A stretch of DNA of 64,000 nucleotides from a virus: IMG/VR virus record IMGVR_UViG_3300027714_002832; one strand, written 5' to 3'. Numbering within the stretch: the first letter of the stretch is position 1; the number at the start of each line of letters is the position of its first letter. Below, piece after piece: positions 919 through 52,551 of the stretch. The translations under genes and the position numbers were made by a program. The notes beneath the pieces are model-generated. The model ran no database searches, was not told the origin of the DNA, and saw only the letters and a list, made by a program, of their open reading frames with translations.

Positions 919-994
919 GGGGATATAGCTCAGTTGGGAGAGCGACTGCCTTGCACGCAGTAGGTCGTAGGTTCGATCCCTATTATCTCCACCA
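919..994 (+). tRNA. tRNA-Ala (anticodon UGC)
   Basis: 76 nt incl. CCA; acceptor GGGGATA/TATCTCC with G3:U70 Ala identity pair; anticodon loop CTTGCAC; T-loop TTCGATC. Confidence 0.85.
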
Positions 995-1043
995 TTATGT
1001 GACTATTAGTCTAATAAATAAAGTAGTAAGTATGAAGTACAAT

Positions 1044-1119
1044 GGGGATATAGCTCAGTTGGGAGAGCGACTGCCTTGCACGCAGTAGGTCGTAGGTTCG
1101 ATCCCTATTATCTCCACCA
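1044..1119 (+). tRNA. tRNA-Ala (anticodon UGC), second identical copy
   Basis: identical 76-nt sequence to 919-994. Confidence 0.85.
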
Positions 1120-1154
1120 TTTTAAAATTAAAGAGATATCAAATTTCTTTAAAA

Positions 1155-1230
<76 letters not shown>

Positions 1231-4069: not shown

Positions 4070-4098
4070 TTGACAAACAGCCACTTAGTTGATATAAT
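4070..4098 (+). promoter_or_regulatory. sigma70-like promoter upstream of clpP
   Basis: TTGACA 4070-4075, 17 nt, TATAAT 4093-4098. Confidence 0.55.
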
Positions 4099-4130: not shown

Positions 4131-4745
4131 ATGTTAGTACCAACAGTAGTAGAATCAACAGGACGTGGAGAACGCGCTTATGATATTTATAGTCGCTTGC
4201 TTCGTGATCGGATTATTATGCTCAATGGAGAAGTAAACGATCACACCGCAAACCTAATCGTAGCACAGATGTTATTTTTGGAATCAGAAAATCCATCAGA
4301 AGACATCAATTTTTACATCAATAGTGGCGGTGGTTCTGTCACCGCTGGACTTAGTATCTATGATACTATGCAGTATATCAATTCACCAGTGTCTACCATC
4401 GTAATGGGACAAGCGTGTTCAATGGGATCATTGTTATCGCAAGCGGGCGCTCCAGGAAAGCGATTTGTTTTACCTAACAGTCGTACTATGATTCATCGTG
4501 TTAGTTCGGGCACTCAGGGTACACGTGGTAGTATTCATGTACAAGAACTTGAGTTTGAAGATGCAAAGCGACATATGGATGAGTCAGTTAATTTGAACAA
4601 TCGTCTTACGCAGTTGTATGTAGATCATAGCAGCAAAGGAAAATCATTTGATGAGTTTTATGCTACTATGAAGCACGACACTTTCATGTCAGCACCAGAA
4701 GCAGTTGAATTTGGTCTTGCTGATAAAGTGATTGCTAAGATCTAG
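4131..4745 (+). CDS. clpP: ATP-dependent Clp protease proteolytic subunit ClpP
   Basis: [16 protein letters not shown]..., [21 protein letters not shown] (Ser), MIHRV (His) blocks of ClpP/S14. Confidence 0.9.
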
Positions 4746-5711: not shown

Positions 5712-6398
5712 ATGAGATTACATAATTTATTTGAAAACAACAAACCAATATTAGATGAGGGTCCAAAAGATCCTCATATCTTTAAATCAGTATTTCTTGC
5801 GGGCGGACCAGGTTCTGGTAAAAGTTTTGTAGCAGGTAAATTACTTAAAGGCGGCGGTCTTAAAGTAGTTAATTCTGATGATATTTACGAATACTTAATG
5901 AAACAGCAGAACTTAGAAATGGACCCAGAGACTATTTTTAGTCCTCAAGGTCAAGCAATTCGTGATAAAGCGAAAGGTCTAACAGGCATCCGTCAAGGCG
6001 GATTTCTAGATGGTCGTTTAGGTCTTGTTATAGACGGAACTGGTAAAGATACTGGTAAAGTAAAAAAGGAAAGTGATAAACTACGTGATTTAGGTTATGA
6101 TACGATGATGGTATTCGTTAATACTAGTTTAGAAGTAGCACAAGCGCGAAATCAAGCACGATCTAGAAAACTTGCACCAGAAGTAGTTGAGGCGATGTGG
6201 AATAAAGTTCAACAGAACATAATGAAATTCCAGCAAATCTTTGGCGCGGCGAACTTCCATGTTATTGATAATTCTGGTGGATTAGAAGACCCAGATAGAG
6301 CAGAGAATTTCGATACCGTATATAAAGAAATACAAAAGTTTATTAATACACCACCATCAAGTCATATTGCTAAAAAATGGCTAGATAATAATAAATAA
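5712..6398 (+). CDS. P-loop NTPase, nucleotide-kinase-like
   Basis: Walker A GGPGSGKSF near N-terminus, small size. Confidence 0.55.
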   Translation: MRLHNLFENNKPILDEGPKDPHIFKSVFLAGGPGSGKSFVAGKLLKGGGLKVVNSDDIYEYLMKQQNLEMDPETIFSPQGQAIRDKAKGLTGIRQGGFLDGRLGLVIDGTGKDTGKVKKESDKLRDLGYDTMMVFVNTSLEVAQARNQARSRKLAPEVVEAMWNKVQQNIMKFQQIFGAANFHVIDNSGGLEDPDRAENFDTVYKEIQKFINTPPSSHIAKKWLDNNK

Positions 6399-6502: not shown

Positions 6503-6847
6503 ATGTATACATATCGTGTTAAATTAGTAAGAGTAATAGACGGTGACACCATTGATGCAGAAATCGATCTAGGCTTCAATGTGGTGATGAGACAGCGAAT
6601 TAGATTGTACGGTATAGCGACACCAGCGACTCACACAAAAGATTTAGAAGAAAAAGAGCGTGGTCTAGCATCAAAGCAGCGCCTGACCGAACTATTACCA
6701 AAAGAGTTTATTGTTGAAACAATATTAAACAAGCGTGGAAAGATTGGTAGAATAATGGGCATCGTGTATGTAGAAGAATATGATACGTCTATCAATATCA
6801 ATGATGTAATGGTTGAAGAAGGTCACGCAATTAGGTATAATAAGTAG
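6503..6847 (+). CDS. staphylococcal-nuclease (SNase/thermonuclease)-like protein
   Basis: VIDGDTID...RIRLYGIATPA resembles SNase V(I)DGDT and DTPE blocks. Confidence 0.5.
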   Translation: MYTYRVKLVRVIDGDTIDAEIDLGFNVVMRQRIRLYGIATPATHTKDLEEKERGLASKQRLTELLPKEFIVETILNKRGKIGRIMGIVYVEEYDTSININDVMVEEGHAIRYNK

Positions 6848-6857
6848 AGGATAAATT

Positions 6858-8414
6858 ATGAGATATTTTGGTATTTGGACAGTTTTTGTAGCATTAACTA
6901 TTAGCGTAGTAGCAGCGTATTATTCAATCATTGGACTAGTTGCTATATTCGCCGCATCAATGGTTCCTGTCATAATCATGGGCAGTGTATTAGAAGTAGG
7001 CAAAATAACAACCGCAGTATGGTTACATAAGTACTGGGATAAAGCAACATTCTTGATGAAATCTTATTTAACTATTGCTGTACTGTTACTCATGTTTATT
7101 ACTAGTATGGGTATTTTTGGTTTCCTATCTAAAGCACATATTGAACAGACAGCAATGGCTGGTGAAGGTGTAGCACAATTGGAACGTGTGGAAGCCGATA
7201 TTGCACGAAATCAATCAGTTATCGCTCGTGCAGATGATAAGATGATCAAACTAGAATCATCAGATGAAACAATAGATACCAATATTCAAACAAAGATTGC
7301 GACAGAAGAAAATCGTATCGCAGGGAAGTCACAGAGATTACAAACAGCAATAGCAGAACAAACAGCAGCGATAGAGTTAGCAGTTGCACCGTATATGACA
7401 CAGCAACAAGCAGCAGACAATGCACTCGCATTAATGAATGGGTTTGTTCAGAATAATGAAATTAAGAAGATACAAGGATTAATTGGCGAAGTACAAGATG
7501 GTTCATATGGAACAAAGACTGCCACTGGAGTTAAGGAATATAGAAATAACCTACTTGATGAACGTGCAACAGCCTTATCTATTGTCAATGAATTACGAGC
7601 AGATACCAGAACTGAAATCGCTAGACTACGTGCAAATTTTGAACAACAGGTAGAATCATCGAATGCACTGATTAGTCGAATGACAACTGAACTTAGCGTA
7701 GTTGAACGTGTAGACACAGAAGCAGACATAACTGCATTGCAATTGAAAATTAAGAATTCAGAAGAATCACTTGACAAACTCTATGAAACAAAGTATACTA
7801 TAGAGACTGAAAGCAGAAAGTTAGAAGCCGAAGTAGGACCTGTTAAATACATAGCAGCATTAATATATGGTGATGATCCTACTAAAGACACATTGGAAGA
7901 TGCTGTACGATGGATTATTATGATACTTGTAGTTGTGTTTGATCCGTTAGCCGTTGTATTAGTAATTGCGGGCATTTCTATTCTTGAGCAAAAGAAAGTG
8001 AACGTAGTACGTGATGATCAGGCTGAATACGATAGAGCAAGAGTACAGCGTATGGTTGATAATACACCTCATAAAGAAGTGGTGGTTGAGTCAATTGAAG
8101 TTGCTGAAAAAGAAACTTCAACAGTAGAAACAGAATTAGAGCGTGAGATTCGTGAATTAAATGAACAACGTGAATTAAATGAATCAAGTCGTAGCATACA
8201 AAAAGAAGCAAATCAGCAAGCATTATTGCTTGTTAAAGATATATCAAATCGCATGATTCAAAGCGGAAGTAATATCACATGTATCAGTGATGTAATAGCA
8301 TCAGACGATACAGGAACCCTGAAGCAGTTATTAGAGGGTGCTGATAAAGACACATTGAATGATGTACAAACTATTATAGCAAACACAATTAATCAAATAC
8401 AGGAAAGTAAATGA
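6858..8414 (+). CDS. membrane protein with long coiled-coil regions
   Basis: 518 aa; three N-terminal TM helices, heptad-rich middle, internal TM WIIMILVVVFDPLAVVLVIAGISIL, acidic C-term. Confidence 0.5.
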   Translation: MRYFGIWTVFVALTISVVAAYYSIIGLVAIFAASMVPVIIMGSVLEVGKITTAVWLHKYWDKATFLMKSYLTIAVLLLMFITSMGIFGFLSKAHIEQTAMAGEGVAQLERVEADIARNQSVIARADDKMIKLESSDETIDTNIQTKIATEENRIAGKSQRLQTAIAEQTAAIELAVAPYMTQQQAADNALALMNGFVQNNEIKKIQGLIGEVQDGSYGTKTATGVKEYRNNLLDERATALSIVNELRADTRTEIARLRANFEQQVESSNALISRMTTELSVVERVDTEADITALQLKIKNSEESLDKLYETKYTIETESRKLEAEVGPVKYIAALIYGDDPTKDTLEDAVRWIIMILVVVFDPLAVVLVIAGISILEQKKVNVVRDDQAEYDRARVQRMVDNTPHKEVVVESIEVAEKETSTVETELEREIRELNEQRELNESSRSIQKEANQQALLLVKDISNRMIQSGSNITCISDVIASDDTGTLKQLLEGADKDTLNDVQTIIANTINQIQESK

Positions 8415-8854
8415 AGCAAGACAACAGTAGTTATACAATAACAAATCCTGATCTATTTTTAACAAATGATGGGATTTCTGTATTAATCACGAGTACTAAC
8501 AAAGAATTCATTGACGAAGTAAAATTAATAGTAGAGCATCACATTGAACATAGTATTGTGTTTAATGTGCAGCCTTCTAGCACCACCGAAACAGGTGTTC
8601 CCTGGATGTGGTATGTGAGTCGTGCAGTTGACATTATGTTTGTTGATTTAGACACATGTGCTTGGGTAGACATTTGTACTGCATTGACAAAAGAACAGGA
8701 TGATAATCATGTTGTTGTGTTTTTTAGTGACAGGAACAAAAAACGCGATGCTATTAAATTGATAAATGCAACGAGTAAGTATATTATACTGAAAGATATT
8801 AAAGAGATCAGTGCATACATGGAAACACATGTTCAACTGTCTGCTCCTTTATGA
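8411..8854 (+). CDS. hypothetical protein
   Basis: 147-aa ORF, ATGA overlap. Confidence 0.45.
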   Translation: MKQDNSSYTITNPDLFLTNDGISVLITSTNKEFIDEVKLIVEHHIEHSIVFNVQPSSTTETGVPWMWYVSRAVDIMFVDLDTCAWVDICTALTKEQDDNHVVVFFSDRNKKRDAIKLINATSKYIILKDIKEISAYMETHVQLSAPL

Positions 8855-10080
8855 CAGAAATGTTAAAATGCGCATTTTGTCATAAGACACAAAAGCAAGT
8901 TTCTAAGTTACTTGCTGGTATAGACGAGCATATTTATATTTGTAATAAATGTGTTCATTTGTCACACAGCATTTTAGAGAAAGAAGATAAAACAAAAACA
9001 CTCAAAGATAAGAAACGTAAGTTACGTGATATTTTTGATACTGTCCCACCTAAACAAGTCCATGAATATTTAAACGAACATGTGATTGGTCAAGAAAAAG
9101 TTAAGAAAGGAATTAGTGTAGCAATATACAATCATTGTAAGAGAATCTTTAATGACACCGTTGTGCAAGTACAAAAATCAAATGTATTACTATTGGGTCC
9201 TACAGGTGTTGGTAAAACACTTATTGCACAAACGCTAGCAAGTTCAATGGATGTGCCATTCGTCATTACAGATGCAACTACGATTACTGAAAGTGGTTAT
9301 GCTGGAGATGATGCAGAAGTATTGATACATAAGTTATTCCAAAATTCTGATTATGATATTGCACGAACCGAGATTGGTATCATCTACGTAGATGAGATAG
9401 ACAAGAAAGCCAAGCGTAATGACATGGTAAGTTTAAGTCGTGATGTATCAGGCGAAGGTGTTCAACAAAGTTTACTGAAACTCATGGAAGGCACCACCAT
9501 CGCAGTACCTAATAAACATGATAGATCTCCTGAAAAAATAGATATAAATACAGAGAACATCTTATTCATTGTGGGCGGTGCTTTTATTGGATTAGAGAAA
9601 GTAGTTGAGCAGCGTCTAGGTAAATCAAAAATAGGATTTACTGGAAAAATGGCAAGCAAAGATTATAATTGGGAAGATGAACTTGAAACGAGTGATCTAG
9701 TTCAATATGGTCTAATACCAGAATTCTTAGGAAGATTACCATCAGTTAATGTATTACATGAATTATCTAAAGATGATTTGGTGCGTGTGTTGACTGAACC
9801 GAAAAATAGTATTGTAAAGCAATATCAAGCATTATTTGAATTAGATAATGTTAGTTTAGAATTTAAGCCATCTGCATTAAGAGCAATCGCAGAGACTTCT
9901 ATTAAGCAAGATCTAGGTGCAAGGGGATTACGCAAAATAATCGACAATGCACTCATTGATACACAATATGAATTACCCGACCTTGTAAGACAAGGCGTTC
10001 AGAAGATTATTATTAGTGAAGAAACTATAACTAGAGGAACAACACCACACATGATCAAAGGATCCATAAGTGAAAAATAA
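8851..10080 (+). CDS. clpX: ATP-dependent Clp protease ATP-binding subunit ClpX
   Basis: N-terminal C4 zinc finger CAFCHK...CNKC, Walker A LLGPTGVGKT, ClpX-type IGF/sensor blocks. Confidence 0.9.
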   Translation: MTEMLKCAFCHKTQKQVSKLLAGIDEHIYICNKCVHLSHSILEKEDKTKTLKDKKRKLRDIFDTVPPKQVHEYLNEHVIGQEKVKKGISVAIYNHCKRIFNDTVVQVQKSNVLLLGPTGVGKTLIAQTLASSMDVPFVITDATTITESGYAGDDAEVLIHKLFQNSDYDIARTEIGIIYVDEIDKKAKRNDMVSLSRDVSGEGVQQSLLKLMEGTTIAVPNKHDRSPEKIDINTENILFIVGGAFIGLEKVVEQRLGKSKIGFTGKMASKDYNWEDELETSDLVQYGLIPEFLGRLPSVNVLHELSKDDLVRVLTEPKNSIVKQYQALFELDNVSLEFKPSALRAIAETSIKQDLGARGLRKIIDNALIDTQYELPDLVRQGVQKIIISEETITRGTTPHMIKGSISEK

Positions 10081-10576
10081 AAAACCAATGTTGATGTTTA
10101 ATCAATTCATAACATTTCGCGAAGTACGTGTCAATTTTGAAGACGGCGAAAGTAAAGTACTAAATACAGTAGAGGCATTATCTATCGCAGAAGGTAGAGG
10201 ACTGGATTTGATTGTTATCAATGAAATTGCAGTTCCACCAGTATGTAAGATTGCTGATAAAAATAAGTTTTTGTATGAACAGAAACAAAAACAAAAAGAC
10301 ACTGCAAAAAAGGCAAGAGCCAGTACAGTAGAACATAAAGAAATCCGTATGGGTTTGAATATCGAAGAAAATGATATTACTGTTAAATCTAATAAGATTA
10401 AAACATTATTGGAAAAGAATTGCAGAGTTACTATTACCGTGACCTTGAAGGGTCGTGAACGAAGTAAGCAACATATAGCACGTGAACTAATCCAATCTAT
10501 TGCAGATCGATTAGGTGTTGAGTTGGAATTATTCGGTGCAAGTGGTAATAGAGTTAGTGCGAAAATAAAAGGTTAA
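10070..10576 (+). CDS. infC: translation initiation factor IF-3 homologue
   Basis: EVRVNFEDGE..VLNTVEALSIAEGRGLDLIVINEIAVPPVCKIADKNKFLYEQ and C-domain KEIRMGLNIEENDI...TLKGRE colinear with bacterial IF3. Confidence 0.8.
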   Translation: MKNKKPMLMFNQFITFREVRVNFEDGESKVLNTVEALSIAEGRGLDLIVINEIAVPPVCKIADKNKFLYEQKQKQKDTAKKARASTVEHKEIRMGLNIEENDITVKSNKIKTLLEKNCRVTITVTLKGRERSKQHIARELIQSIADRLGVELELFGASGNRVSAKIKG

Positions 10577-10578
10577 GA

Positions 10579-10821
10579 ATGGCATATAATAGAAATGAGC
10601 GTCAAGGTTTGACGGTTGCAGTATACAATGATAACATCGAACAAGCGTTGCGTAAATTTAAGAAGAAGATGACCACAGATGGTAAACTTCAAGAAGTAAA
10701 GGATCGCGCAGAATTTACACCAAAATTTGAAAAGCGTAAAGCATCACAAGCAGCAGCAAAGGCACGATTGCGCAAGCAATTGTCACAAGAGAATAATGTT
10801 ACTAAAAAGCGTTTATTCTAA
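10579..10821 (+). CDS. rpsU: ribosomal protein S21 homologue
   Basis: 80 aa, basic; ALRKFKKKMTTDGKLQEVKDRAEFTPKFEKRKASQAAAKARLRK matches bS21 pattern. Confidence 0.7.
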   Translation: MAYNRNERQGLTVAVYNDNIEQALRKFKKKMTTDGKLQEVKDRAEFTPKFEKRKASQAAAKARLRKQLSQENNVTKKRLF

Positions 10822-10850
10822 ATAGACAACTGGTAACTTTACACTAACAA

Positions 10851-10875
10851 AGGAGCATTAAATGCTCCTTTTTGC
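10851..10875 (+). terminator. rho-independent terminator
   Basis: AGGAGCAT-TAA-ATGCTCCT hairpin then TTTTG. Confidence 0.75.
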
Positions 10876-10904
10876 TTGCTTTATTATTAATTCCGTAGTA
10901 TAAT
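10876..10904 (+). promoter_or_regulatory. candidate sigma70-like promoter upstream of clpS
   Basis: TTGCTT 10876-10881, 17 nt, TATAAT 10899-10904. Confidence 0.4.
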
Positions 10905-10931
10905 ATATGTTAACCAATAAAGGAAATACCA

Positions 10932-11240
10932 ATGACACAATCATCAGCATCAACATCATCCGAACTAACACACACACGACTACGTGGCCCATCAAAGTAT
11001 AATGTTATCTTTTTAAATGATGACGCAACCTCTATGGAATTTGTTATTTCGGTACTAACTGCTATCTTTCATAAAGATGCAACAGAAGCAGCAGAAGTAG
11101 CAGTACACATTCATGAAAAAGGCAAGGCAATCGCTGGAACCTATCAGTATGAAGTAGCAGAACAGAAAGTAACTGAGACAGTATCTAATGCTCGTTCAGC
11201 AGGCTTTCCACTTTCATTAACGTTGGAAGAAGTTGAATAA
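10932..11240 (+). CDS. clpS: ClpS adaptor protein homologue
   Basis: YNVIFLNDDATSMEFVISVL...EAAEVAVHIHEKGKAIAGTYQYEVAEQKV matches ClpS core. Confidence 0.8.
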   Translation: MTQSSASTSSELTHTRLRGPSKYNVIFLNDDATSMEFVISVLTAIFHKDATEAAEVAVHIHEKGKAIAGTYQYEVAEQKVTETVSNARSAGFPLSLTLEEVE

Positions 11241-11244
11241 ACAC

Positions 11245-11273
11245 TTGACAAGTAAGAAGCCTTGGTATATAAT
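11245..11273 (+). promoter_or_regulatory. conserved phage promoter module
   Basis: ACACTTGACAAGTAAG..17 nt..TATAAT then GTTATATAAGTTAATTAAAG. Confidence 0.6.
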
Positions 11274-12115: not shown

Positions 12116-12143
12116 TGTACATTTTAACTCAAGGAATCATTTA

Positions 12144-13394
12144 ATGCAACCGTTTGAACTATTGGATAGGTTTGAACTGATGTACCCTAACAACAGTAAG
12201 TTATCAGATCTGCGTAGGGCATACATTGACAAAGATCTAAGTAGTATCTTTCGATTACTACCAGCAGGACATAACGACTTACGTAAGGCAGTGATAGAAC
12301 AAAACTTACATAGTATCTTTCGATTACTACCAGAAAAACATGAAGACTTACGTAAGGCGGTGATAGAACAAAACTTACATAGTATCTTTCGTTTGCTACC
12401 AGCAGAGCATGAAGAACTAGGCAGAGCAGTGATAGAACAAAACTTGCATAGTATCTTTCGATTACTACCAAATGTTAGTAATGATGATCTTGAAGACTTA
12501 CGTAAGGCAGTGATAGAACAAAACTTGCATAGTATCTTTCGTTTGCTACCAGACGAGCATGAAGAACTAGGTAGAGCAGCAATAGAACAAAACTTACATA
12601 GTATCTTTAGACTAGTAGACGATGAAGACTTGCGTAGAGCAGTGATAGAACAAAACTTGCATAGTATCTTTAGACTAGTAGATGATGAAGAATTACGCAA
12701 ACTACTATTAGAAGATAATATTTGGAAGTTATGGCCTGTGCTATCTAGATACACTGATACACAGTTCGTTGAAGCATTCAAAAACTTCTTTGTCAATGAT
12801 ACTGAGATATGGGATGATTGTTTCGCAAGAGGACAGTTAGAAAGTAAACTATGGTTAGTGCGTGAATTGCAACAATGTAATATACCACTAGGCACTGTGT
12901 TTATTTGTGCGGGCTGGTATGCAACTATCGCTACTATGTTGTTTGAGAGCGACATGGAAATAGATAAGATTCGCAGTTTTGATATTGATACTACTTGTGC
13001 AGAAATCGCAGAAGTGTTTAATAAGCCTTGGGTAGTAGATGGATGGAAGTTTAAAGCGGCTTACAAAGATATACACGATATTGATTTCACAGGAAAAACA
13101 CCCTATAGTGTTTATAAATCAAATGGCGAAGAGCAATTGTTATGTGATAGTCCAGACACTGTTATAAACACAAGTTGTGAGCATATTGATAACTTTGAAG
13201 CATGGTATTCCAAGATACCAGATGGTAAATTGGTGATATTACAAAGTAATAACTTCTATGAAGTGGATGAACACGTAAATTGTGTTGCAGATGTTGATGA
13301 ATTTATTGACACTGCGCCTATGAGTACTGTATTGTACAGTGGAGAATTAGAGTTGCCTAAGTATACTAGGTTTATGATAATTGGATATAAGTAA
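12144..13394 (+). CDS. tandem-repeat protein (N-terminal repeats of the AVIEQNLHSIFRLLP motif, C-terminal globular domain)
   Basis: 416 aa; RBS AAGGAA upstream; about 7 consecutive 21-22-aa repeats LRKAVIEQNLHSIFRLLPxxHE(D/E). Confidence 0.7.
   Translation: MQPFELLDRFELMYPNNSKLSDLRRAYIDKDLSSIFRLLPAGHNDLRKAVIEQNLHSIFRLLPEKHEDLRKAVIEQNLHSIFRLLPAEHEELGRAVIEQNLHSIFRLLPNVSNDDLEDLRKAVIEQNLHSIFRLLPDEHEELGRAAIEQNLHSIFRLVDDEDLRRAVIEQNLHSIFRLVDDEELRKLLLEDNIWKLWPVLSRYTDTQFVEAFKNFFVNDTEIWDDCFARGQLESKLWLVRELQQCNIPLGTVFICAGWYATIATMLFESDMEIDKIRSFDIDTTCAEIAEVFNKPWVVDGWKFKAAYKDIHDIDFTGKTPYSVYKSNGEEQLLCDSPDTVINTSCEHIDNFEAWYSKIPDGKLVILQSNNFYEVDEHVNCVADVDEFIDTAPMSTVLYSGELELPKYTRFMIIGYK
12213..12714 (+). repeat. 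in-frame tandem DNA repeats (about 63-66-bp units, about 7 copies) inside the CDS
   Basis: repeated GCAGTGATAGAACAAAACTT(A/G)CATAGTATCTTTCG(A/T)TT(A/G)CTACCAG units. Confidence 0.8.
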
Positions 13395-14987: not shown

Positions 14988-16052
14988 ATGAACGCAGTTA
15001 ACGCTTGGACAGAGTTTCAACCATTGAAGAAAGTAGTATTGGGTGCACCATTCCCAGAAACTGCATTTGATTGGCACGAAGATGAAGAGACACGAGACAC
15101 TATGCGACAAATCTTCCGTGAAACAGCCGAAGATATTGAAGTACTAGCACAACTATTAGAAGCACGTGGAATTGAAGTGGTACGTCCCAAGAACATCTTT
15201 ACAATCACTGGTGAAGAACAGATTCAATTACCGTGGGCTCATTGTGCGTTTCCGAACCATCCATTAATGCCGCGCGATACGTTGATGCCATATGGTCATT
15301 CAATTTTTGAATGCTTTACAGGCGGTGACAATCGTTACTTTGAAAACCTAGCATACTATGATCACGTAGTAGAATGGTTTAAACAAGGTGCTGATTGGAT
15401 TTCAATGCCTGGCTGCATGGTAGAAACTGGTAAAGGATATGATGAATACGTAGCAGAGCAGCGTGTACTGTATCATGCTGCAAATATGATCAAGTGTGGT
15501 GATACTATCTTATTCAGTCAACCATACGAAGGTGACAACAAGCGTGGACGTGGTACGAATTTGGGCAAGGAATGGATGCAAAGAGAAATCAAACAGCGTT
15601 ATCCTGATACTAAATTTATTGATATTCCAATTGGTGGTCACATAGATGGTAAGATTGCATTATTGAAGCCGGGTGTTCTTATGACGTGGAACAAAGCATG
15701 GGTCCCAGAAGAATTCAAGAATTGGACAATCATTGAAGTAGAAGATGATTTTGACATGCCAGCAGATTTTCAAAATACACGTAAGCGTAGATACTATAAA
15801 GAGTATGTACAGAAGTGGTTAAGTCATTGGGTAGGTTATGCAGACGAGTCTGTATTTGATGTTAATGTATTATCATTGGATGAAAAGACGGTAATCTGTA
15901 CAGGTAAAAACGATGCAGCATTTGCTGAAATGGAAGCAAACGGAATTGAACCAATTGTTTGGCGATTCCGTCATCAGTATTTTTGGGATGGTGGTATCCA
16001 TTGCTTGACTAGTGATATCGTACGTGAAGGTAATTGTGAGAATTATTTATGA
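14988..16052 (+). CDS. amidinotransferase / guanidino-group-modifying enzyme superfamily protein
   Basis: C-terminal GGIHCLTSDIVREG resembles the catalytic-Cys GGxHCxT motif of amidinotransferases/ADI/DDAH. Confidence 0.55.
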   Translation: MNAVNAWTEFQPLKKVVLGAPFPETAFDWHEDEETRDTMRQIFRETAEDIEVLAQLLEARGIEVVRPKNIFTITGEEQIQLPWAHCAFPNHPLMPRDTLMPYGHSIFECFTGGDNRYFENLAYYDHVVEWFKQGADWISMPGCMVETGKGYDEYVAEQRVLYHAANMIKCGDTILFSQPYEGDNKRGRGTNLGKEWMQREIKQRYPDTKFIDIPIGGHIDGKIALLKPGVLMTWNKAWVPEEFKNWTIIEVEDDFDMPADFQNTRKRRYYKEYVQKWLSHWVGYADESVFDVNVLSLDEKTVICTGKNDAAFAEMEANGIEPIVWRFRHQYFWDGGIHCLTSDIVREGNCENYL

Positions 16053-17083
16053 GTATGCTATGGCGTGATAATATACAAAGCCTACAAGTAGATGTTACTA
16101 GTTATTGTAATGCTAAGTGTGGTGGATGCGCTAGAAATGACGACGGTCATGAAACAAGACCGGGTCTTATTCTTGAAAACTTTGATGTTGATGTATGGAA
16201 TCGTATGGCAGAGCATGATACCAAAGATATTTTTATTAATGAACTGGTATTAAACGGGAATTGGGGTGACTCTATGATGCATCCTAAAATTAAAGATATG
16301 GTTACAACATTTGCAAAATTTCATCCAGAAGCGAGTTTATATATCCATACCAATGGCAGTATGCGCACGACCAAATTCTGGGCTTCTTTTGCCAAAGTTT
16401 GTCGTCAATTCTCAAATCATCGTGTAGTTTTTGCAGTAGACGGTCTAGAAGATACACATGCGATATATCGTCGTAATACCGACTTTCTTAAAATTATGGA
16501 GAATATTAAAGCATTCACCGATGCGAATGGACGAGCGAGTGTAACCATGACCCTATTTGAACACAATAAACATCAAGTAGAAGAAGTTAAAAAAATAGCA
16601 CAATCGCTTAATGCAGATTTTACCTTACGTTACAGTCATGGAGATGGACTAGAAGTAATTGCGCCTGGCGAAAATTATATGATATATGCATGTGATGAAT
16701 TGCCCGAAGAGGAGGTAGAAGTAGAGCATGATAATTATAGATTAAGTGATTTACCAAATTATATGGATAATCTAATTATATCAGATGCAATAGAACCTGT
16801 CGCATCAACATGTCCGTGGTTAGCAGATCGTCAAGTGCAAATTGATCCATGGGGTACGGTGTGGCCATGTTGTCATATTAGTAATCATGCAAATTCCTTT
16901 TCATCAGAGTATACTGGGATCGCCGCAACTGATGATAATTTCGATGAAGGTAAACTAGCAAATAACCTGAAGCATACGCCGTTATATGATATCCTTAGTA
17001 ATCGGTGGTATGCGGATGTGTTACCTGATGCGGTAAAACATGAAAAATGGCTAGTTTGTCGTGATTCATGCTTTAGTGATTAA
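16049..17083 (+). CDS. radical SAM enzyme with C-terminal SPASM/twitch-like motif
   Basis: CNAKCGGC (Cx3Cx2C); C-terminal CPW...GTVWPCCH and CRDSC; paralogue of ORF 1309-2334. Confidence 0.8.
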   Translation: MSMLWRDNIQSLQVDVTSYCNAKCGGCARNDDGHETRPGLILENFDVDVWNRMAEHDTKDIFINELVLNGNWGDSMMHPKIKDMVTTFAKFHPEASLYIHTNGSMRTTKFWASFAKVCRQFSNHRVVFAVDGLEDTHAIYRRNTDFLKIMENIKAFTDANGRASVTMTLFEHNKHQVEEVKKIAQSLNADFTLRYSHGDGLEVIAPGENYMIYACDELPEEEVEVEHDNYRLSDLPNYMDNLIISDAIEPVASTCPWLADRQVQIDPWGTVWPCCHISNHANSFSSEYTGIAATDDNFDEGKLANNLKHTPLYDILSNRWYADVLPDAVKHEKWLVCRDSCFSD

Positions 17084-39916: not shown

Positions 39917-39970
39917 TTAAGATAAGTGGTCGACGATTCACAAAATTCGCAGTTACTAATGGAGATTAAA

Positions 39971-41185
39971 ATGTCGAATCCAACATATATGGATTATTCA
40001 TCAACGACCCCAGTAGATCCACAGGTCGCCAAAAAAATGGCAGATTGTTTAACAATGGAAGGCAACTTTGGCAATCCTGCATCACGTTCACATACGTACG
40101 GATGGGAAGCAGAAGCAGCCGTTGATAAAGCACGTAAACAAGTAGCAGATTTGATTGGAGCAGATACACGAGAGATTGTATGGACATCAGGCGCAACTGA
40201 ATCAAACAATCTAGCACTTAAAGGCATTGCTCAGTTTTATGCAAAACGTGGTAAGCATATTATTACGTTACGAACAGAACATAAAGCAATACTAGATACT
40301 TGTCGTCAACTAGAACGAGAAGGGTTTGAAGTAACTTACTTAGACCCAATGCCCAACGGTTTACTAGACATTGAAGTGTTTAAAAATACAATCAGAGAAG
40401 ACACCATTTTAGCATCATTTATGCATGTTAATAATGAGATTGGTGTTATACAAGACTTACACGCCATTGGTGATATCTGTAGAGAACATAAAGTATTCTT
40501 CCATGTTGACGCTGCTCAATCAGTAGGCAAAATGCCAATTGACTTAGCAACGCTCCCAGTAGATTTAATGAGTTTTTCCGCACATAAGATATACGGACCT
40601 AAAGGCATGGGTGCATTGTATGTATCACGTAAACCTAGAGTTCGTCTTGAAGCACAAATGCATGGTGGTGGACACGAACGCGGTATGCGATCTGGTACAT
40701 TAGCAACACATCAAATTGTTGGAATGGGTGAAGCATTTGCTATTGCACAAGAAATGATGGCAGAGGAAGAAGTTAGAACACGCGCACTCAGAGATAGGTT
40801 ATACGCGGGATTCTCAGATATGGAAGAAGTAGTAGTCAATGGTGATTTTGAACAGCGTATTGGCAGCAACTTAAATATCAGTTTCAATTACGTAGAGGGT
40901 GAATCTCTATTAATGGCAATCTCTAATATTGCAGTATCTTCTGGTTCTGCATGTACATCTGCAAGTCTTGAACCATCATACGTTCTTAGAGCGTTAGGAC
41001 TTAGTGACGAATTAGCACACAGTTCAATTCGATTTAGTGTTGGTCGTTATACAACAGAAAAAGATGTAGATGATGCAATTATTCTAGTACGACAGAAAGT
41101 AGAAAAATTAAGAGACTTATCACCATTATGGGACATGTACAAAGATGGTGTTGATTTAAGTACGGTACAATGGGCTGCTCACTAA
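39971..41185 (+). CDS. iscS: cysteine desulfurase IscS/NifS
   Basis: start set at [16 protein letters not shown] (RBS GGAGA); PLP Lys block [16 protein letters not shown]; active-site SSGSACTS. Confidence 0.9.
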
Positions 41186-47310: not shown

Positions 47311-48000
47311 ATTAGATCTAACCCAGTCATGCATTTCAGGCGTGTTATGCGCATTGATAACTAACCAATAACTATCTTTAGTACTTGCATTAAATAATGC
47401 ATGCTCTAATGTAGTGTTCACTGCATATAGTTGGCCCATTTCAAAATAAAGCGGCTTATCTTCTAACATAAATCTAAACCACGGATTTGTAGTATTAGAT
47501 AACGCCATTATTAATCTAAACGTATCCACATTTTCACCACGACTATCTCGATGTGGTGGGAAATAACCGCCTGGCGATACTCTCAATATATGCGTTCTAC
47601 CACATAAATGTAATATATCACCAAGTAACTCTTTCATTGAAGTGAGATCATACACAGGGGTAGTTTTATCAAAATCTTTTTCACTGTAATCTGTATTATA
47701 TTTTCTATTCCATTCATACAGACTATTCAATGCGGGACCAGATTGATTTAAACCACTTTCATTTATTACACATAGACCGTCTCGCTTAATATGTGGTTTA
47801 AATTCATTGTATTGTTCCCATTTATCGTCAAACTGTGATAGTTCTTCCATAAATCTGCTAGTATTAATACTCTTATCTAATAAGATTTGATTTCCTAAAT
47901 TAAAAATTACAGACATATAACTATTCCTTAAAAGATTTATCGCCGGGAAACAATGGTAATTGTGTACCTGGCGCACGCTTAGGTATCTTACTATCTGCAC
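47296..48000 (-). CDS. cupin / 2OG-Fe(II)-oxygenase-like protein (candidate)
   Basis: GGYFPPHRDSRGE (HxD) and downstream LEHALFN His; first gene of minus-strand island. Confidence 0.4.
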   Translation of the reverse strand: MQIVRYLSVRQVHNYHCFPAINLLRNSYMSVIFNLGNQILLDKSINTSRFMEELSQFDDKWEQYNEFKPHIKRDGLCVINESGLNQSGPALNSLYEWNRKYNTDYSEKDFDKTTPVYDLTSMKELLGDILHLCGRTHILRVSPGGYFPPHRDSRGENVDTFRLIMALSNTTNPWFRFMLEDKPLYFEMGQLYAVNTTLEHALFNASTKDSYWLVINAHNTPEMHDWVRSNLAIK

Positions 48001-49090
48001 TACTCACGCACGCATTAGTCGTACATACTGTGGGTGCATCAAATAACTTGAAACCTGTTTCTATATTTCCTAACGGCTGATCTACGCAACTATAACTACG
48101 CTTCACACTACCATCTGGTTCTCTGATAATAATACTACGATGACCAGATGAACATTCCCAGCCCTTGAATTTATTAAAACCAAATGCGTTGAATCGTTCA
48201 GCCTGATCCATGAACCAATGCTTGTTATCTTTATCCATGAACTCAACTTGAAAATGCTGAGGCACTGTTACATTCTCTTCCCAATACAACGGATCCCCAT
48301 CTTTCTTAAATGTAGGTGTCGGGCGTGTAACCAACTGAGTCTTTTTCGCTTTATCTTCTGTATAACCACGCTGTGGCATACCGTTGTGTAATCGCTCCAT
48401 CTGCTCTGCGGTGTAACCATCTACTATCTTACTAGCAGTAGGATCAGACATAGGCTTTAATGTACAGTTGATTCCCTGATTATGAAAGAATAACGCATTA
48501 TCCCAATCTCGCTCAAACCATTCTGGAACCATCACTTGATTGATAGTTACTTGTACATCATGTTCTTGACAGAATATTAACTTATCAGCAAAGACTTGCA
48601 TCTTTTCTCTAGTGTCTAAATGCTCTGTGTGCAAACTTGCTGTAATACTTGCTCTATGAAATGGTGCGACATTCTTAACATAAGTCTCAAACCACTTCAT
48701 GGGACGTGACATATTAGTTGTCATGTGAACTGATGTGTAATTAGTGTTATCTACATCATCTGCAAGGTGTTTCATTATATCCAAATATCCCGGATGGAAT
48801 GTTGGTTCACCCCCGCTTAAACTAAAGTGAAAACTATTGAAACCATTGTCTCGTGCTTGACGCTTAATCTCGTCAACTGTACGTAAACATAACTCAGTAG
48901 GTCTAAAGTCTTTCTTATCACTACGAGCGTAAGGCCAGCAGTAACTACAACGATAGTTACAATAGCGTCCCAGTAACCAACTAATACTGAATAAATCGCG
49001 ATGAAGCATTGTGCGTTGCCCTACTCTTACTAAATCATCAAATGGTATTTTAGTAAAATCGTATGTACTGTATTTTAAATCTTCGCTCAT
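47921..49090 (-). CDS. radical SAM enzyme with C-terminal twitch/SPASM-like Cys region
   Basis: CNYRCSYC (Cx3Cx2C); C-terminal WECSSGHRS...SYSCVD...CTTNAC; start set at MSEDLKY (49090) 1 nt after upstream stop; ORF-track start is 49138. Confidence 0.75.
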   Translation of the reverse strand: MSEDLKYSTYDFTKIPFDDLVRVGQRTMLHRDLFSISWLLGRYCNYRCSYCWPYARSDKKDFRPTELCLRTVDEIKRQARDNGFNSFHFSLSGGEPTFHPGYLDIMKHLADDVDNTNYTSVHMTTNMSRPMKWFETYVKNVAPFHRASITASLHTEHLDTREKMQVFADKLIFCQEHDVQVTINQVMVPEWFERDWDNALFFHNQGINCTLKPMSDPTASKIVDGYTAEQMERLHNGMPQRGYTEDKAKKTQLVTRPTPTFKKDGDPLYWEENVTVPQHFQVEFMDKDNKHWFMDQAERFNAFGFNKFKGWECSSGHRSIIIREPDGSVKRSYSCVDQPLGNIETGFKLFDAPTVCTTNACVSSADSKIPKRAPGTQLPLFPGDKSFKE

Positions 49091-49091
49091 T

Positions 49092-49529
49092 TTAGATGCA
49101 CCATGAAATCTTTTTATCGCCATAATATTCTCTAGCAAAGCCTTCTGCTATGAGCATGTGTCTTAAACTCTTGCCATCTATAATGATATCACCAAGTACT
49201 CGACCACCATACTTGTCCCATTTATAAATGGCTACTTGTATAACCGTTGCTGCATTTAACATATCTTTAGTAAACTGTGACGCTTCTTCACCCCATGCTG
49301 CTTCTTTAGGACATTCTGCTCTCCAACTTTTTTCTGGAGTATCTACACCATATACACGAATACTTAATTCCTGCTTCAATGGTGCTGGTAAAAAGGTAGC
49401 TTCAAATGCAACGGTGTCGCCATCAATCACTCTTGTAATATTATAATCGTAGATGGTCATCTCTACTTCTTTTGCCATTGCTGGCATTGTTGATAGTATT
49501 GCAATTAATAAAATTATAATCGTTCTCAT
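49092..49529 (-). CDS. secreted staphylococcal-nuclease (SNase)-like nuclease
   Basis: signal peptide MRTIIILLIAILSTMPAMA; VIDGDTVAF...RVYGVDTPE SNase catalytic blocks. Confidence 0.6.
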   Translation of the reverse strand: MRTIIILLIAILSTMPAMAKEVEMTIYDYNITRVIDGDTVAFEATFLPAPLKQELSIRVYGVDTPEKSWRAECPKEAAWGEEASQFTKDMLNAATVIQVAIYKWDKYGGRVLGDIIIDGKSLRHMLIAEGFAREYYGDKKISWCI

Positions 49530-51288: not shown

Positions 51289-52551
51289 TTAGTTATTGTC
51301 ATTGATTTGTCCTTTAAATTCTGGACATGATTCTACTAACGTACCACGTTGCAATTCATCCATCTTCAAATTATAATCAATAAATTCTTGCCAGTGTTCA
51401 GCATGTGTATTCCCAGCATTTAAATACTTAATCACATCGTCTACCTTAGGCCATGCTTTATGACTTTTTAAATTATACAATGCCAACGTCTTTAAATGAT
51501 GTGGCAATACTTGTATATTCATACTACGCGGATGGTTTAATATATTGAAATATAACTGATCATGTTCTAATCCACGTGATTCCGCAAACTCGATAACCTC
51601 GTGTAGTGCACATACATTCAATGCTTGTACCGTACAATGAATCTGAATATATACATTATCCAATTTAGATAATTCATCAAAATTCTTTTCTACTATATGC
51701 CAATGACTAGGGTAACGAATATATCTGTCACGCGCACCAATTGCATCAATTGAGCAATTTAATTGTACACGCTTGAAATGTGACCAATATTCGATCATCT
51801 TCGGTGGCACATTAGTTAGGTTGGTGTTGTACTTTAAACGAATGCCCGATGCAAGATCATTTTCAATACAATAGTCTAACAACTTATATTGACTAACTGC
51901 CAATGTAGGCTCACCACCAGTTAAATAAATTTCTTCAACCGTATGAGCAATTTCAGTGAATGTAATACCTGTCTTTTCCCAATCTGGCCATTCAGTCATG
52001 GTATTCATGAATTCTAATGTGTCTTCATCCAATTTCTTTGGTGGATCTAAATATGCTGCATCAACTACTTTATTCCAATCTTTAACCCACATGCTACTTG
52101 CCCACGGATTACACATGCGACATTTTAGGTTACATAAGTTACCCAAACGTAAGTCAACATATTTCACATCAACTGGAATTTCAACATCTATCTTCACATC
52201 TTCTTTCAGCCACTTTTCATTAAATCCTGCTCGCGCACTACGAATGCCAGCATCTTCTTCTCTGAAACAACGCGCACACATATCTGGTCGCTCACCATCG
52301 ATGAACTGTTTTCTGATAGTTGTATAGGTTGGGCTATTCCATACTTCATCTAAATCATGCTTGTAGATTTTATATGGCTTGCCATTCTCTTGTAATATTG
52401 TGTTCTCACCGGGCGTGCTATTACAGCATACTCGATAAGATCCCGCAGCATTAGTTGCTACGTGCATAAAGGGTAAAACACAGAACGTGTCACTTACTTT
52501 TTTTGTCATTTGTTTAAATCCATTTTGTATAATCTTTGCCATCACTATCAT
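51289..52551 (-). CDS. radical SAM enzyme with N-terminal twitch-like Cys motif
   Basis: N-term CVLPFMHVATNAAGSYRVCCNS ... CARCF then CNLKCRMC (Cx3Cx2C). Confidence 0.8.
   Translation of the reverse strand: MIVMAKIIQNGFKQMTKKVSDTFCVLPFMHVATNAAGSYRVCCNSTPGENTILQENGKPYKIYKHDLDEVWNSPTYTTIRKQFIDGERPDMCARCFREEDAGIRSARAGFNEKWLKEDVKIDVEIPVDVKYVDLRLGNLCNLKCRMCNPWASSMWVKDWNKVVDAAYLDPPKKLDEDTLEFMNTMTEWPDWEKTGITFTEIAHTVEEIYLTGGEPTLAVSQYKLLDYCIENDLASGIRLKYNTNLTNVPPKMIEYWSHFKRVQLNCSIDAIGARDRYIRYPSHWHIVEKNFDELSKLDNVYIQIHCTVQALNVCALHEVIEFAESRGLEHDQLYFNILNHPRSMNIQVLPHHLKTLALYNLKSHKAWPKVDDVIKYLNAGNTHAEHWQEFIDYNLKMDELQRGTLVESCPEFKGQINDNN

Follow-up and report, generated by a model that had tools for sequence, protein, structure and literature searches.

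A phage gene pair for initiation factor IF3 and ribosomal protein bS21 within a Clp protease cluster of aquatic jumbo phages

The DNA analyzed here, referred to as the window (64,000 nucleotides; IMG/VR virus record IMGVR_UViG_3300027714_002832), encodes a translation initiation factor, IF3, directly followed by a ribosomal protein, bS21. The locus is best explained as the translation part of a conserved aquatic jumbo-phage cluster with the order ClpP ... ClpX-IF3-bS21-(Hsp20)-ClpS. The two proteins represent their families in intact and full-length form, their genes are packed for translational coupling, and both have been inherited together across deep divergence. The analysis adds that, in aquatic jumbo phages of a large family with global distribution, IF3 and bS21 make up a translationally coupled, co-evolving unit, that this unit is embedded in a cluster of Clp protease, adaptor and chaperone genes, and that a cultured Vibrio phage carries it. 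The rather vague idea of a translation takeover by phage is made concrete in this way and becomes experimentally approachable.

The features of the locus are listed in Table 1. As the initial annotation had claimed, the infC-like and rpsU-like genes follow clpX directly, one right behind the other, and all three open reading frames were found on the plus strand at the coordinates given there.

Table 1. Coordinates of genes and transcription signals in and around the IF3-bS21 locus of the window
Feature	Position	Strand	Description
Perfect sigma-70 consensus promoter	4070-4098	+	5' of clpP; candidate start of the unit ending after S21
clpP	4131-4745	+	204 aa; proteolytic subunit, first gene of the cluster; Pfam CLP_protease 7e-64
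Zeta-toxin / AAA_33-like kinase	5712-6398	+	228 aa; Pfam; position kept in relatives
SNase-like nuclease	6503-6847	+	114 aa; Pfam SNase 1.4e-8; position kept in relatives
518-aa protein	6858-8414	+	Hydrophobic stretches at the N-terminus and at about residues 357-379 (by eye)
147-aa protein	8411-8854	+	No Pfam match above cut-off
clpX	8851-10080	+	409 aa; AAA+ unfoldase; NCBIfam ClpX 503.7 bits (cut-off 359)
infC-like (IF3)	10070-10576	+	168 aa; GTG start; Pfam, TIGR00168, AlphaFold, Foldseek
rpsU-like (bS21)	10579-10821	+	80 aa; ATG start; Pfam, TIGR00030
Hairpin	10849-10871	+	10-bp perfect stem, AAAGGAGCAU-UAA-AUGCUCCUUU, then a U-rich tract; probable terminator
clpS	10932-11240	+	102 aa; N-degron adaptor; Pfam ClpS 3.7e-27
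Next perfect sigma-70 consensus promoter	11245-11273	+	Just 3' of clpS; start of the following transcription unit

The infC-like and rpsU-like identities proposed in that annotation were borne out by Pfam and TIGRFAM scores above the cut-offs and, for IF3, by the fold of the predicted structure. The IF3_N profile (Pfam) matched residues 11-77 of the infC-like product with 73.9 bits (cut-off 26.9), IF3_C (Pfam) gave 53.5 bits (cut-off 34.8) in an alignment over profile positions 1-62 of 86 only, and the whole-protein profile infC TIGR00168 (NCBIfam) gave 120 bits (cut-off 60). Solved IF3 chains in the PDB also matched the sequence. An AlphaFold model of the protein (pLDDT 88.2) comprised two domains, N and C, joined by a linker helix of 22 residues. 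In this model, the lysine-rich helix spans residues 64-85 (KNKFLYEQKQKQKDTAKKARAS) and aligns with the E. coli linker, and residues 89-166 make up a C domain in which the beta-alpha-beta-alpha-beta-beta fold is complete, with pLDDT >90. The best Foldseek matches of the model were all IF3, with full-length TM values of 0.72-0.76 to 30S-bound IF3; for the isolated domains, TMt values were 0.82-0.87 for the N domain against 1tif and 6o6d and 0.82 for the C domain against 1tig. A complete two-domain IF3 is confirmed for this open reading frame.

When 11 positions conserved among bacterial IF3s were checked in the phage protein, against a set of 16 bacterial sequences only, 10 were found to be retained, namely R25, K66, K72, Y75, K94, R97, D106, K110, K131 and R133 (E. 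coli numbering); with few exceptions in the set, these positions are invariant or limited to K/R. The remaining one was position 70, a Tyr in 15 of the 16 bacterial proteins, which is K in the window IF3 and almost always a non-aromatic residue (L, I, M, T or K) in the IF3s of phages. In addition, the phage IF3 C domain is ∼13 residues shorter than that of bacteria. Given the replacement of Tyr-70 and the shortened C domain, the function of phage IF3, described as unknown in the Sharanji paper, could be altered relative to that of the bacterial factor.

The downstream product is likewise confirmed as bS21. It scored 42.1 bits with Ribosomal_S21 (Pfam, PF01165; cut-off 27) over profile positions 2-55 of 55 and 45.5 bits with S21p TIGR00030 (NCBIfam; cut-off 28.95), and bS21 chains in the PDB matched it with E-values down to 8e-6. 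The window genes share with bacterial infC and rpsU not only family membership but also domain architecture. The protein is strongly basic (pI 10.4; 21 Lys and Arg versus 9 Asp and Glu) and terminates in KKRLF. Its N-terminus (MAYNRNERQG...) has 8 residues beyond that of E. coli bS21, an offset consistent with the PDB alignment. Among phage bS21 proteins, such extensions are variable, of 8 to ∼22 residues and rich in N, R, K and Y (for example MKKYNNNSRDRNRDNREDKDYG in a relative). N-terminal extensions of phage bS21 have been described before, with the proposal that they aid competitive ribosome binding (Al-Shayeb 2020), and the enrichment in basic and aromatic amino acids that characterizes these extra residues is seen in the window protein.

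That the window is phage DNA is evident from its near-identity to IMG/VR viral contigs as long as 192 kb, from genes for a T4 gp44-like clamp loader and three tRNAs, and from 13 perfect sigma-70 promoters that all lie on one strand. No close cultured relative was found in searches of phage records. Megablast of window positions 40-64 kb against 50,697 phage records gave no match, a distant search with 8-12 kb of the window matched only clpX-like stretches, and tblastn with the window S21 against cultured phages gave partial matches to PA5oct-like phages only. The nearest S21 proteins outside the clade (P0131-139) are 46-50% identical to that of the window. When genome contigs were scanned with one of these, matches of 37-59% identity were obtained, 6 of 7 of them in gamma/beta-type proteobacterial MAGs, a weak pointer to a possible host among the Pseudomonadota.

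The genes of the locus are closely packed. The TAA stop codon of clpX and the GTG start of infC overlap by 11 nt, this GTG being the first codon of its open frame and preceded at a distance of 7 nt by AGGA, and the rpsU ATG lies 2 nt downstream of the infC stop codon. The perfect consensus of host-type sigma-70 promoters (TTGACA-N17-TATAAT) occurs 13 times in the window, always on the plus strand, against an expectation of 0.07. Between the copy 5' of clpP and the copy just 3' of clpS, no other perfect match is present. The hairpin 3' of S21, although absent from the output of a simple terminator scan, gave a centroid energy of −12.5 kcal/mol (z = −2.6) when folded separately and is probably an intrinsic terminator that ends the clpX-infC-rpsU unit. 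An Rfam search over the whole window returned the three tRNAs only; around infC and rpsU, neither a leader nor a regulatory RNA was detected.

Two features of the window had been read in the initial annotation as signs of unusual initiation, and neither withstood analysis. Leaders said to have little or no ribosome-binding site are in fact enriched in SD-like motifs (AGGA, AAGGA and AGGAG), which were found upstream of the starts of 43% of 102 crudely called genes versus 8% of internal control sites. A TTG start had been taken to indicate altered initiation. The start codons accepted by IF3 are AUG, GUG and UUG, and others, AUU among them, are discriminated against; given that UUG is among the codons accepted, TTG is a canonical start and is uninformative about altered fidelity. 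Bacterial infC typically starts with AUU, which serves autoregulation, whereas phage infC starts with GTG, ATG or TTG. A canonical start with an SD motif was present in all 10 phage infC genes inspected, the GTG start is kept across the sub-clade of the window, and the AUU-type autoregulatory start of E. coli infC, which belongs to the regulation of the bacterial gene and is no property of the protein, is not present in the window gene.

The initial annotation took an IF3 homologue next to S21 to be rare, a view that the wider survey contradicts. S21 lies immediately 3' of IF3 in half (32 of 64) of the distinct IMG/VR phage IF3 loci, 1310 viral genomes and contigs have been reported to carry bS21 (Mizuno 2019, PMC6375957), many jumbo phages have an annotated IF3, each of the two proteins has been reported from phages previously (Al-Shayeb 2020; Mizuno 2019), and for the pair itself an annotation exists in Vibrio phage 2.275.O. 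Given that the arrangement recurs in these 32 loci, whose IF3 identities range from 95% to 26%, the adjacency is not a matter of chance. The junction between the two genes ranges from −17 to +8 nt in relatives and is often an overlap of 4 or 8 nt. Both S21 and ClpS follow IF3 in 28 of the 64 loci; clpX and clpS flank IF3 in 21, of which 19 have the full order ClpX-IF3-S21-Hsp20-ClpS and 2 lack Hsp20. Pairwise identities of IF3 and of S21 were strongly correlated (Mantel r = 0.89), with none of 2000 permutations giving a value as high. The divergence of the two proteins therefore co-varies as expected of a pair inherited as one unit.

These counts refer to distinct loci, a raw count of 100 IF3 "phage" records having been set aside on suspicion of contamination. 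Many matches to IF3, ClpX or IscS were short unannotated contigs named for Listeria, Staphylococcus or Enterococcus phages and are probably bacterial contamination. The same origin was considered for the IMG/VR loci with IF3 alone and was rejected; no L35 or L20 gene is found downstream, and the neighbors are diverse and phage-like. Candidates for a hidden S21 were also dismissed, given that no S21 signal was detected in a 248-aa open reading frame in the place of S21 on a 337-kb Tara scaffold or in the 65- and 105-aa open reading frames after IF3 of Sinorhizobium phage Phosso.

Among cultured phages, the closest parallel in gene order is Vibrio phage 2.275.O._10N.286.54.E11 (MG592671.1; 349 kb; host Vibrio cyclitrophicus), which has an IF3-S21-ClpS core in the same order and orientation as the window. 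Its genes NVP2275O_044-046 are annotated as "translation initiation factor IF-3," "RpsU3" (Pfam S21 9e-13) and "ClpS-like adaptor." The two S21 proteins both start with MA(F/Y)N and have a basic C-terminus with an aromatic end, although identity is only ∼37% for S21 and ∼31% for IF3. The Vibrio phage differs in that a Dda-like helicase and small open reading frames, not ClpX, lie upstream of IF3, Hsp20 is lacking, and the IF3 start is TTG; in a rough neighbor-joining tree, its IF3 clusters with those of Rak2-like enterobacterial phages and not with the marine clade of the window. In Rak2-like jumbo phages (Asteriusvirus EJP2, Eneladusvirus fHe-Yen9-04, Xanthomonas phage XaC1 and others), a two-domain IF3, 30-40% identical to that of the window and likewise without Tyr-70, is followed directly by a ClpS-domain gene, with S21 absent between them. 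The ClpS-domain protein is 175-182 aa long, and its extra 70 N-terminal residues were discounted as an S21 remnant (S21 HMM E ∼1).

The bS21 of pelagiphage HTVC008M was incorporated into E. coli ribosomes, rendered them nearly inactive in vitro and was proposed to replace host bS21 (Mizuno 2019, PMC6375957). Both it and the window protein are small basic homologues on large lytic aquatic phages; the HTVC008M protein is a recent capture, 54% identical to that of the host, whereas that of the window is linked to IF3 and comes from an old phage lineage. Huge freshwater phages with predicted Bacteroidetes hosts that do not use SD sequences carry bS21 among structural genes with late expression, and IF3 is not mentioned for them (Chen 2022, PMC9723584). 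Jumbo-phage bS21 with a divergent N-terminal helix, alongside chaperone genes, is common to these phages and the window. By contrast, bS21 of the window lies beside IF3 in a non-structural region rich in sigma-70 promoters within an SD-using genome. The moraphage paper (PMC12619734) concerns a different lineage without S21 or IF3.

That IF3 and bS21 both act at 30S initiation, as the initial annotation had it, is in line with established knowledge: IF3 is known as a 30S-binding factor that keeps the subunits from associating and proofreads the start codon, and bS21 as a component of the 30S platform close to the 16S rRNA 3' end. The most likely role of the pair, which we put forward tentatively, is an early and coupled supply of phage-made 30S initiation parts. 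Here, both proteins would be made early by host RNA polymerase and in roughly equal amounts, the timing being read from the promoter consensus only. Given that bS21 sits loosely on the platform and can be exchanged, phage bS21 would enter host 30S subunits in this way, with the incorporation of HTVC008M bS21 into E. coli ribosomes as the only precedent, and phage IF3 would bind these subunits in the manner of the host factor. With canonical starts and SD motifs in place of AUU, synthesis of phage IF3 should escape the host feedback loop; if codon discrimination is kept, the protein would also repress translation of host infC. The net result would be an initiation-competent 30S pool that is maintained under phage control through a long jumbo-phage infection in which host expression is shut down. 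Late expression in the unrelated bS21 phages (Chen 2022, PMC9723584), the Tyr-70 replacement and shorter C domain of phage IF3, and the near inactivity of E. coli ribosomes carrying HTVC008M bS21 count against such a role. The variable N-terminal extensions of phage bS21, with the competitive binding proposed for them (Al-Shayeb 2020), and the lineage-specific changes in phage IF3 would also suit a selective effect, in which bS21 and IF3 change the mRNAs or start sites that the 30S subunit accepts in favor of phage messages, and the tight pairing and co-evolution of two 30S-acting factors fit a joint function. Such retuning toward phage mRNAs, claimed in the initial annotation and put forward earlier for phage bS21 (Al-Shayeb 2020; Mizuno 2019; Chen 2022), is a possible but somewhat unlikely reading, given the ordinary SD motifs of phage leaders, in which no signature peculiar to the phage was noticed, and the retention of 10 of the 11 residues conserved across the bacterial IF3s compared; TTG and GTG starts, being canonical for IF3, are not evidence of altered fidelity. 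It is highly improbable that the pair is a functionless passenger, either decaying host DNA of recent capture or the product of a chimeric assembly. Phages in general pick up host genes, but the best bacterial matches of the window IF3 are ≤45% identical, and the pair is conserved, intact and co-evolving over dozens of independent contigs from many samples. In E. coli, infC lies in the thrS-infC-rpmI-rplT operon and rpsU in the rpsU-dnaG-rpoD operon, and IF3 was absent within 3 kb of rpsU in 7 bacterial rpsU loci; given that the two genes are not neighbors in the bacteria checked or in E. coli, one capture cannot explain the pair.

The surrounding cluster brings further explanations into consideration. 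A zeta-toxin-like kinase and a nuclease lie within it, and ribosome rescue or support of phage translation has been suggested for jumbo-phage IF3 (Iyer 2021). Both points would accord with phage copies that replace or shield host initiation components inactivated by abortive-infection or toxin systems, a purely contextual explanation that we regard as improbable, no specific connection to a known defence system having been found, and the same estimate covers a variant in which extra IF3 would counteract ribosome hibernation or 70S sequestration. Alternatively, phage ClpP, ClpX and ClpS may remove host bS21, IF3 or other initiation or hibernation factors, for which the phage copies would then substitute. 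In favor of this, clpX and clpS flank IF3 in the 21 loci noted above, with clpP upstream. Window ClpP, whose equivalent occupies the same position in relatives L006-L011, has stretches that, read by eye, resemble the Ser, His and Asp catalytic motifs. ClpX has a zinc finger, a Walker A motif and, at residue 261, an IGF motif, the loop that serves as the ClpP-docking element; the canonical GYVG of the pore loop was not found in the translation, which has GYAG. Alignment to the solved Caulobacter and E. coli ClpS proteins revealed that phage ClpS retains the LNDD.T.MEFV and H.H..G stretches, which we take to form the N-degron pocket. Moreover, clpS is the most deeply conserved neighbor of phage IF3, and IF3 is still linked to ClpS in those jumbo phages, Rak2-like enterobacterial ones and those of Xanthomonas, whose IF3 locus lacks S21, ClpX and Hsp20. 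However, the partner of ClpS is ClpA, not ClpX, and no clpA was seen within the window; L005-type relatives have no ClpX at the IF3 locus; and a shared neighborhood is no proof of a common pathway, since early proteostasis and translation genes may simply be co-regulated. Removal and substitution of host factors is therefore judged unlikely, although a phage protease against host bS21 has independently been the subject of speculation (McNutt 2023, PMC9976891).

In its fullest form, which we also consider an unlikely one, the whole cluster ClpP ... ClpX-IF3-bS21-Hsp20-ClpS would act as a single ribosome-conversion device, with the Clp protease and N-degron adaptor stripping host bS21, IF3 or both and the co-translated phage pair taking their place. 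If true, 30S initiation complexes specific to the phage would arise early in infection, and this device would be the protease envisaged by McNutt 2023 for bS21 phages. Two further proteins of the cluster keep their place in relatives: open reading frames of 468-693 aa homologous to the 518-aa protein occupy the equivalent position in L005-L011, and the 147-aa open reading frame is always found immediately 5' of clpX or IF3.

Two adjacent ORFs downstream of clpX encode a translation initiation factor IF3 and a ribosomal protein bS21. The predicted IF3 scored 73.9 bits against Pfam IF3_N (cut-off 26.9), 53.5 bits against IF3_C (cut-off 34.8) and 120 bits against the NCBIfam infC equivalog model (cut-off 60), and the IF3 chains of solved 30S initiation complexes aligned to its residues 9-149. 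In an AlphaFold model with 45 homologues as input (mean pLDDT 88.2), a 22-residue linker helix joins the N domain to a C domain with the complete beta-alpha-beta-alpha-beta-beta fold; the top Foldseek matches in the PDB were all IF3, with TM scores of 0.72-0.76 over the whole chain and 0.82 when either domain was compared alone. The S21 product (pI 10.4) matched the whole Pfam Ribosomal_S21 profile at 42.1 bits (cut-off 27), TIGR00030 at 45.5 bits (cut-off 28.95) and the bS21 chains of solved structures. By comparison with the E. coli S21 sequence, it carries an 8-residue N-terminal extension, an offset that agrees with the PDB bS21 alignment, and its C terminus (...KKRLF) is similar to that of the long proteobacterial type (...RTRLY). 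Thus, the profile searches placed the first ORF in the IF3 fold and found the S21 signature in the second, bearing out the infC and rpsU calls of the initial annotation.

In a 52-sequence alignment that included 16 bacterial IF3s, the window protein was found to retain R25, K66, K72, Y75, K94, R97, D106, K110, K131 and R133 (E. coli numbering). At these ten positions the bacterial proteins are, with few exceptions, invariant or K/R-conserved. R99, R112, R116, R129 and R147 are absent, and these positions are variable among bacteria too. Tyr70, present in 15 of the 16 bacterial sequences, gives way to Lys in the window, and nearly all phage IF3s have L, I, M, T or K there. The C domain is ∼13 residues shorter in the phage lineage.

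The IF3 frame opens exactly at its GTG codon, with an AGGA motif 7 nt upstream. Given that the closest relatives (P0002-P0004) have Val as first residue and no counterpart to the internal Mets of the window protein, this GTG can be taken as the real start. It overlaps the end of clpX by 11 nt, stop codon included, and the S21 ATG lies 2 nt past the IF3 stop. Between S21 and clpS is a perfect 10-bp hairpin with a U-rich tract on its 3' side. Unlike most relatives, the window has no Hsp20 gene in the interval 10822-10931, which contains only this hairpin and a weak TTGCTT-N17-TATAAT promoter-like site.

Coordinates of features in the window
Feature	Position	Strand	Remark
tRNA-Ala(TGC), two copies, and tRNA-Thr(TGT)	919-1230	+	in a row
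Perfect sigma-70 sites	841, 4070, 11245, 11912, 17088, 17513, 22241, 24590, 29995, 32066, 37615, 43518, 43726	+	overall span 841-43754
clpP	4131-4745	+	Pfam 7e-64
clpX	8851-10080	+	ORF table, raw sequence
IF3 ORF	10070-10576	+	168 aa; GTG start
S21 ORF	10579-10821	+	80 aa; ATG start
Hairpin and U-rich tract	10849-10871
Promoter-like site	about 10876-10904		weak
clpS	10932-11240	+	3' of hairpin
Repeat ORF	12144-13394	+	416 aa
Radical-SAM genes	1309-2334, 16049-17083	+
Radical-SAM genes	47921-49138, 51289-52551, 52514-53446	-
Radical-SAM genes	55759-56985, 56972-58105, 59504-60754	-
IscS-type cysteine desulfurase	39926-41185	+

The pair lies in a Clp-flanked cluster. The perfect promoter at 4070 precedes clpP, after which come a 283-aa ORF, a zeta-toxin-like kinase, an SNase-like nuclease, a 518-aa protein with hydrophobic stretches, a 147-aa ORF, clpX, IF3, S21, the hairpin and clpS; the next perfect promoter, at 11245, is 3' of clpS. 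Relatives at 41-52% IF3 identity (Tara, ENA and JGI; contigs up to 337 kb) have the same order, usually with Hsp20 between S21 and ClpS. On a 337-kb Tara scaffold (L006, 6525-7271), and also in locus L007, a 248-aa ORF occupies the place of S21 between IF3 and Hsp20; in L006, no S21 or other family was detectable in it. In Sinorhizobium phage Phosso (PV764938.1; 3511-4015), ClpX-IF3 is followed by two ORFs of 65 and 105 aa, the second very basic and ending ...NFLY, both without S21 or ClpS signal.

The initial annotation had regarded the pair as rare. A profile-guided scan of IMG/VR yielded 80 loci with IF3 relatives, and the 64 distinct loci among these were searched with HMMs made from proteins found in this analysis. 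S21 was immediately downstream of IF3 in half of them (32/64); the claim of rarity is therefore not tenable. The junctions span -17 to +8 nt, and overlaps of 4 or 8 nt are very frequent. The full order ClpX-IF3-S21-Hsp20-ClpS was observed in 19 loci, and some full-order or paired loci were on contigs of 245-343 kb. When the 31 distinct IMG/VR loci with the pair were compared with one another and with Vibrio phage 2.275.O (32 loci together), identities of 26-95% for IF3 and 17-99% for S21 were strongly correlated (Mantel r = 0.89, reached by 0 of 2000 permutations), which argues for long joint travel rather than repeated joining, and indicates that IF3 and S21 have been inherited together over a long time. 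Seven bacterial rpsU loci had no IF3 within 3 kb. The 28 loci with IF3 alone had diverse phage-like neighbors, and bacterial L35 or L20 was not found there. The pair thus arose in phages and is no captured host operon. In one of the IF3-alone loci (L092, IMGVR_UViG_3300035208_007127, 2170-2601), an ORF overlapping the IF3 stop looks like peptide deformylase (motif GIGLACPQIG) and, if so, would be a further translation-related pairing.

Among cultured phages, Vibrio phage 2.275.O._10N.286.54.E11 (349 kb; host V. cyclitrophicus) has three consecutive GenBank genes already annotated as 'translation initiation factor IF-3', 'RpsU3' and 'ClpS-like adaptor'; Pfam confirmed S21 and ClpS, and no other cultured record with this kind of S21 was found. 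By contrast, in the Rak2-like phages EJP2, fHe-Yen9-04 and XaC1 (enterobacteria, Xanthomonas), IF3 is followed directly by a 175-182-aa ClpS-domain protein, without S21. The extra N-terminal segment of these ClpS proteins was considered as an S21 remnant and rejected, having no S21 match. ClpS is thus a more constant IF3 neighbor than S21 among the cultured jumbo phages examined, whereas in the IMG/VR loci the two keep IF3 company about equally (31/64 and 32/64). A rough neighbor-joining tree, itself weak evidence, placed the window in a monophyletic marine clade and the Rak2-like phages with the Vibrio phage in a second; both stood apart from the sampled bacteria. The best bacterial matches were ≤45% identical to the window IF3. 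Many short unannotated records named as Listeria, Staphylococcus, Enterococcus or Salmonella phage or 'Bacteriophage sp.' (phage-collection hits H14, H18-H20, H62, H67-H76 and others) carry IF3, ClpX or IscS at bacterial-like identity; such records are probably bacterial contamination that inflates raw hit counts.

The IF3 is also present, near-identical (99% amino-acid identity), on IMG/VR viral contigs up to 192 kb and on one Logan contig. The window has 36% G+C, small genes in long co-directional arrays, a T4 gp44-like clamp loader, PRPP synthetase and DNA ligase; no cultured phage searched at the DNA level was close to it. Perfect TTGACA-N17-TATAAT sites number 13, all on the plus strand, where 0.07 would be expected; an extended TTGACAAGTAAG motif is common to many of them, and the set looks like a strong early promoter family that would be read by host RNA polymerase. 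SD-like motifs were observed 5' of 43% of 102 crudely called genes versus 8% of internal control sites, which contradicts the initial annotation's view of many leaders with little or no RBS. Together with the S21 tail, these promoters and SD use point weakly to a proteobacterial host; a search for the host by way of the nearest cellular S21s yielded only matches at 37-59% identity, mostly in gamma- and betaproteobacterial MAGs.

The window holds two intact, conserved, co-evolving 30S-initiation genes, arranged for coupled translation in a non-structural region rich in sigma-70 promoters. IF3 and bS21 would be made early and in roughly equal amounts. Since bS21 is a loosely bound, exchangeable ribosomal protein, the phage form may enter host 30S subunits by exchange, and the phage IF3 would bind those same subunits. 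In E. coli, infC is subject to start-codon-based autoregulation; all 10 phage infC genes inspected have ATG, GTG or TTG plus an SD and none an AUU-type start, so that phage IF3 synthesis should escape such control. If the phage IF3 discriminates between start codons, host infC would be repressed by it as well. This arrangement and these steps lead us to favor, tentatively, a model in which the phage controls the supply of 30S subunits competent for initiation while host expression is shut off.

Selective retuning of initiation toward phage mRNAs, as originally proposed partly from a TTG start, is possible but less probable, given that SD use is ordinary, the conserved IF3 core is intact, and TTG and GTG are canonical IF3 starts, which makes the TTG argument wrong. 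Removal of the host counterparts of IF3 and bS21 by the flanking Clp system is less probable still: an IGF motif occurs at residue 261 of ClpX, and ClpS keeps the LNDD.T.MEFV and H.H..G stretches when aligned to solved ClpS structures, but ClpS usually partners ClpA, of which none was seen in the window, and a shared gene neighborhood is no proof of a shared pathway.

The locus belongs to a known class, the jumbo-phage translation-initiation genes. IF1, IF3 and S21 were reported among huge-phage genes, with N-terminal extensions of phage S21 and a proposal of competitive replacement of host proteins (Al-Shayeb 2020), and jumbo-phage IF3, ClpX and ClpS were each described separately (Iyer 2021). 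A survey counted 1310 viral genomes or contigs with bS21, most of them from aquatic settings, and showed that the HTVC008M protein is incorporated into E. coli ribosomes, leaving them poor at in vitro translation (Mizuno 2019, PMC6375957). In phages predicted to infect Bacteroidetes, bS21 is expressed late, and IF3 is not mentioned (Chen 2022, PMC9723584). Phages with bS21 have been speculated to carry a protease gene directed at the host bS21 (McNutt 2023, PMC9976891), and the 2025 coliphage Sharanji paper calls the role of phage IF3 unknown. The full-text literature open to search (subscription journals lie outside it) contained no paper describing adjacent IF3 and S21 genes or their Clp-flanked setting. 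A modest advance here is to recognize IF3 and bS21 as a widespread, co-inherited operon set among Clp and chaperone genes; this operon is directly open to experiment in the cultured Vibrio phage.

Several other features of the window were recorded. ClpX has GYAG in place of the canonical GYVG pore-loop motif, with Walker A, IGF and zinc finger intact. The 416-aa ORF, for which a family search gave no match, contains six tandem repeats of ∼21-27 residues containing IEQNLHSIFRL (at residues 51, 74, 97, 124, 147 and 168), and the long antisense ORF 12137-12955 is a by-product of these repeats. The window encodes at least eight radical-SAM enzymes, six of them in a minus-strand cluster and one bearing a SPASM domain, plus an IscS-type cysteine desulfurase that shares 67-69% identity with iscS from contigs of gammaproteobacterial appearance; this Fe-S/radical-SAM load is unusually large for a phage.
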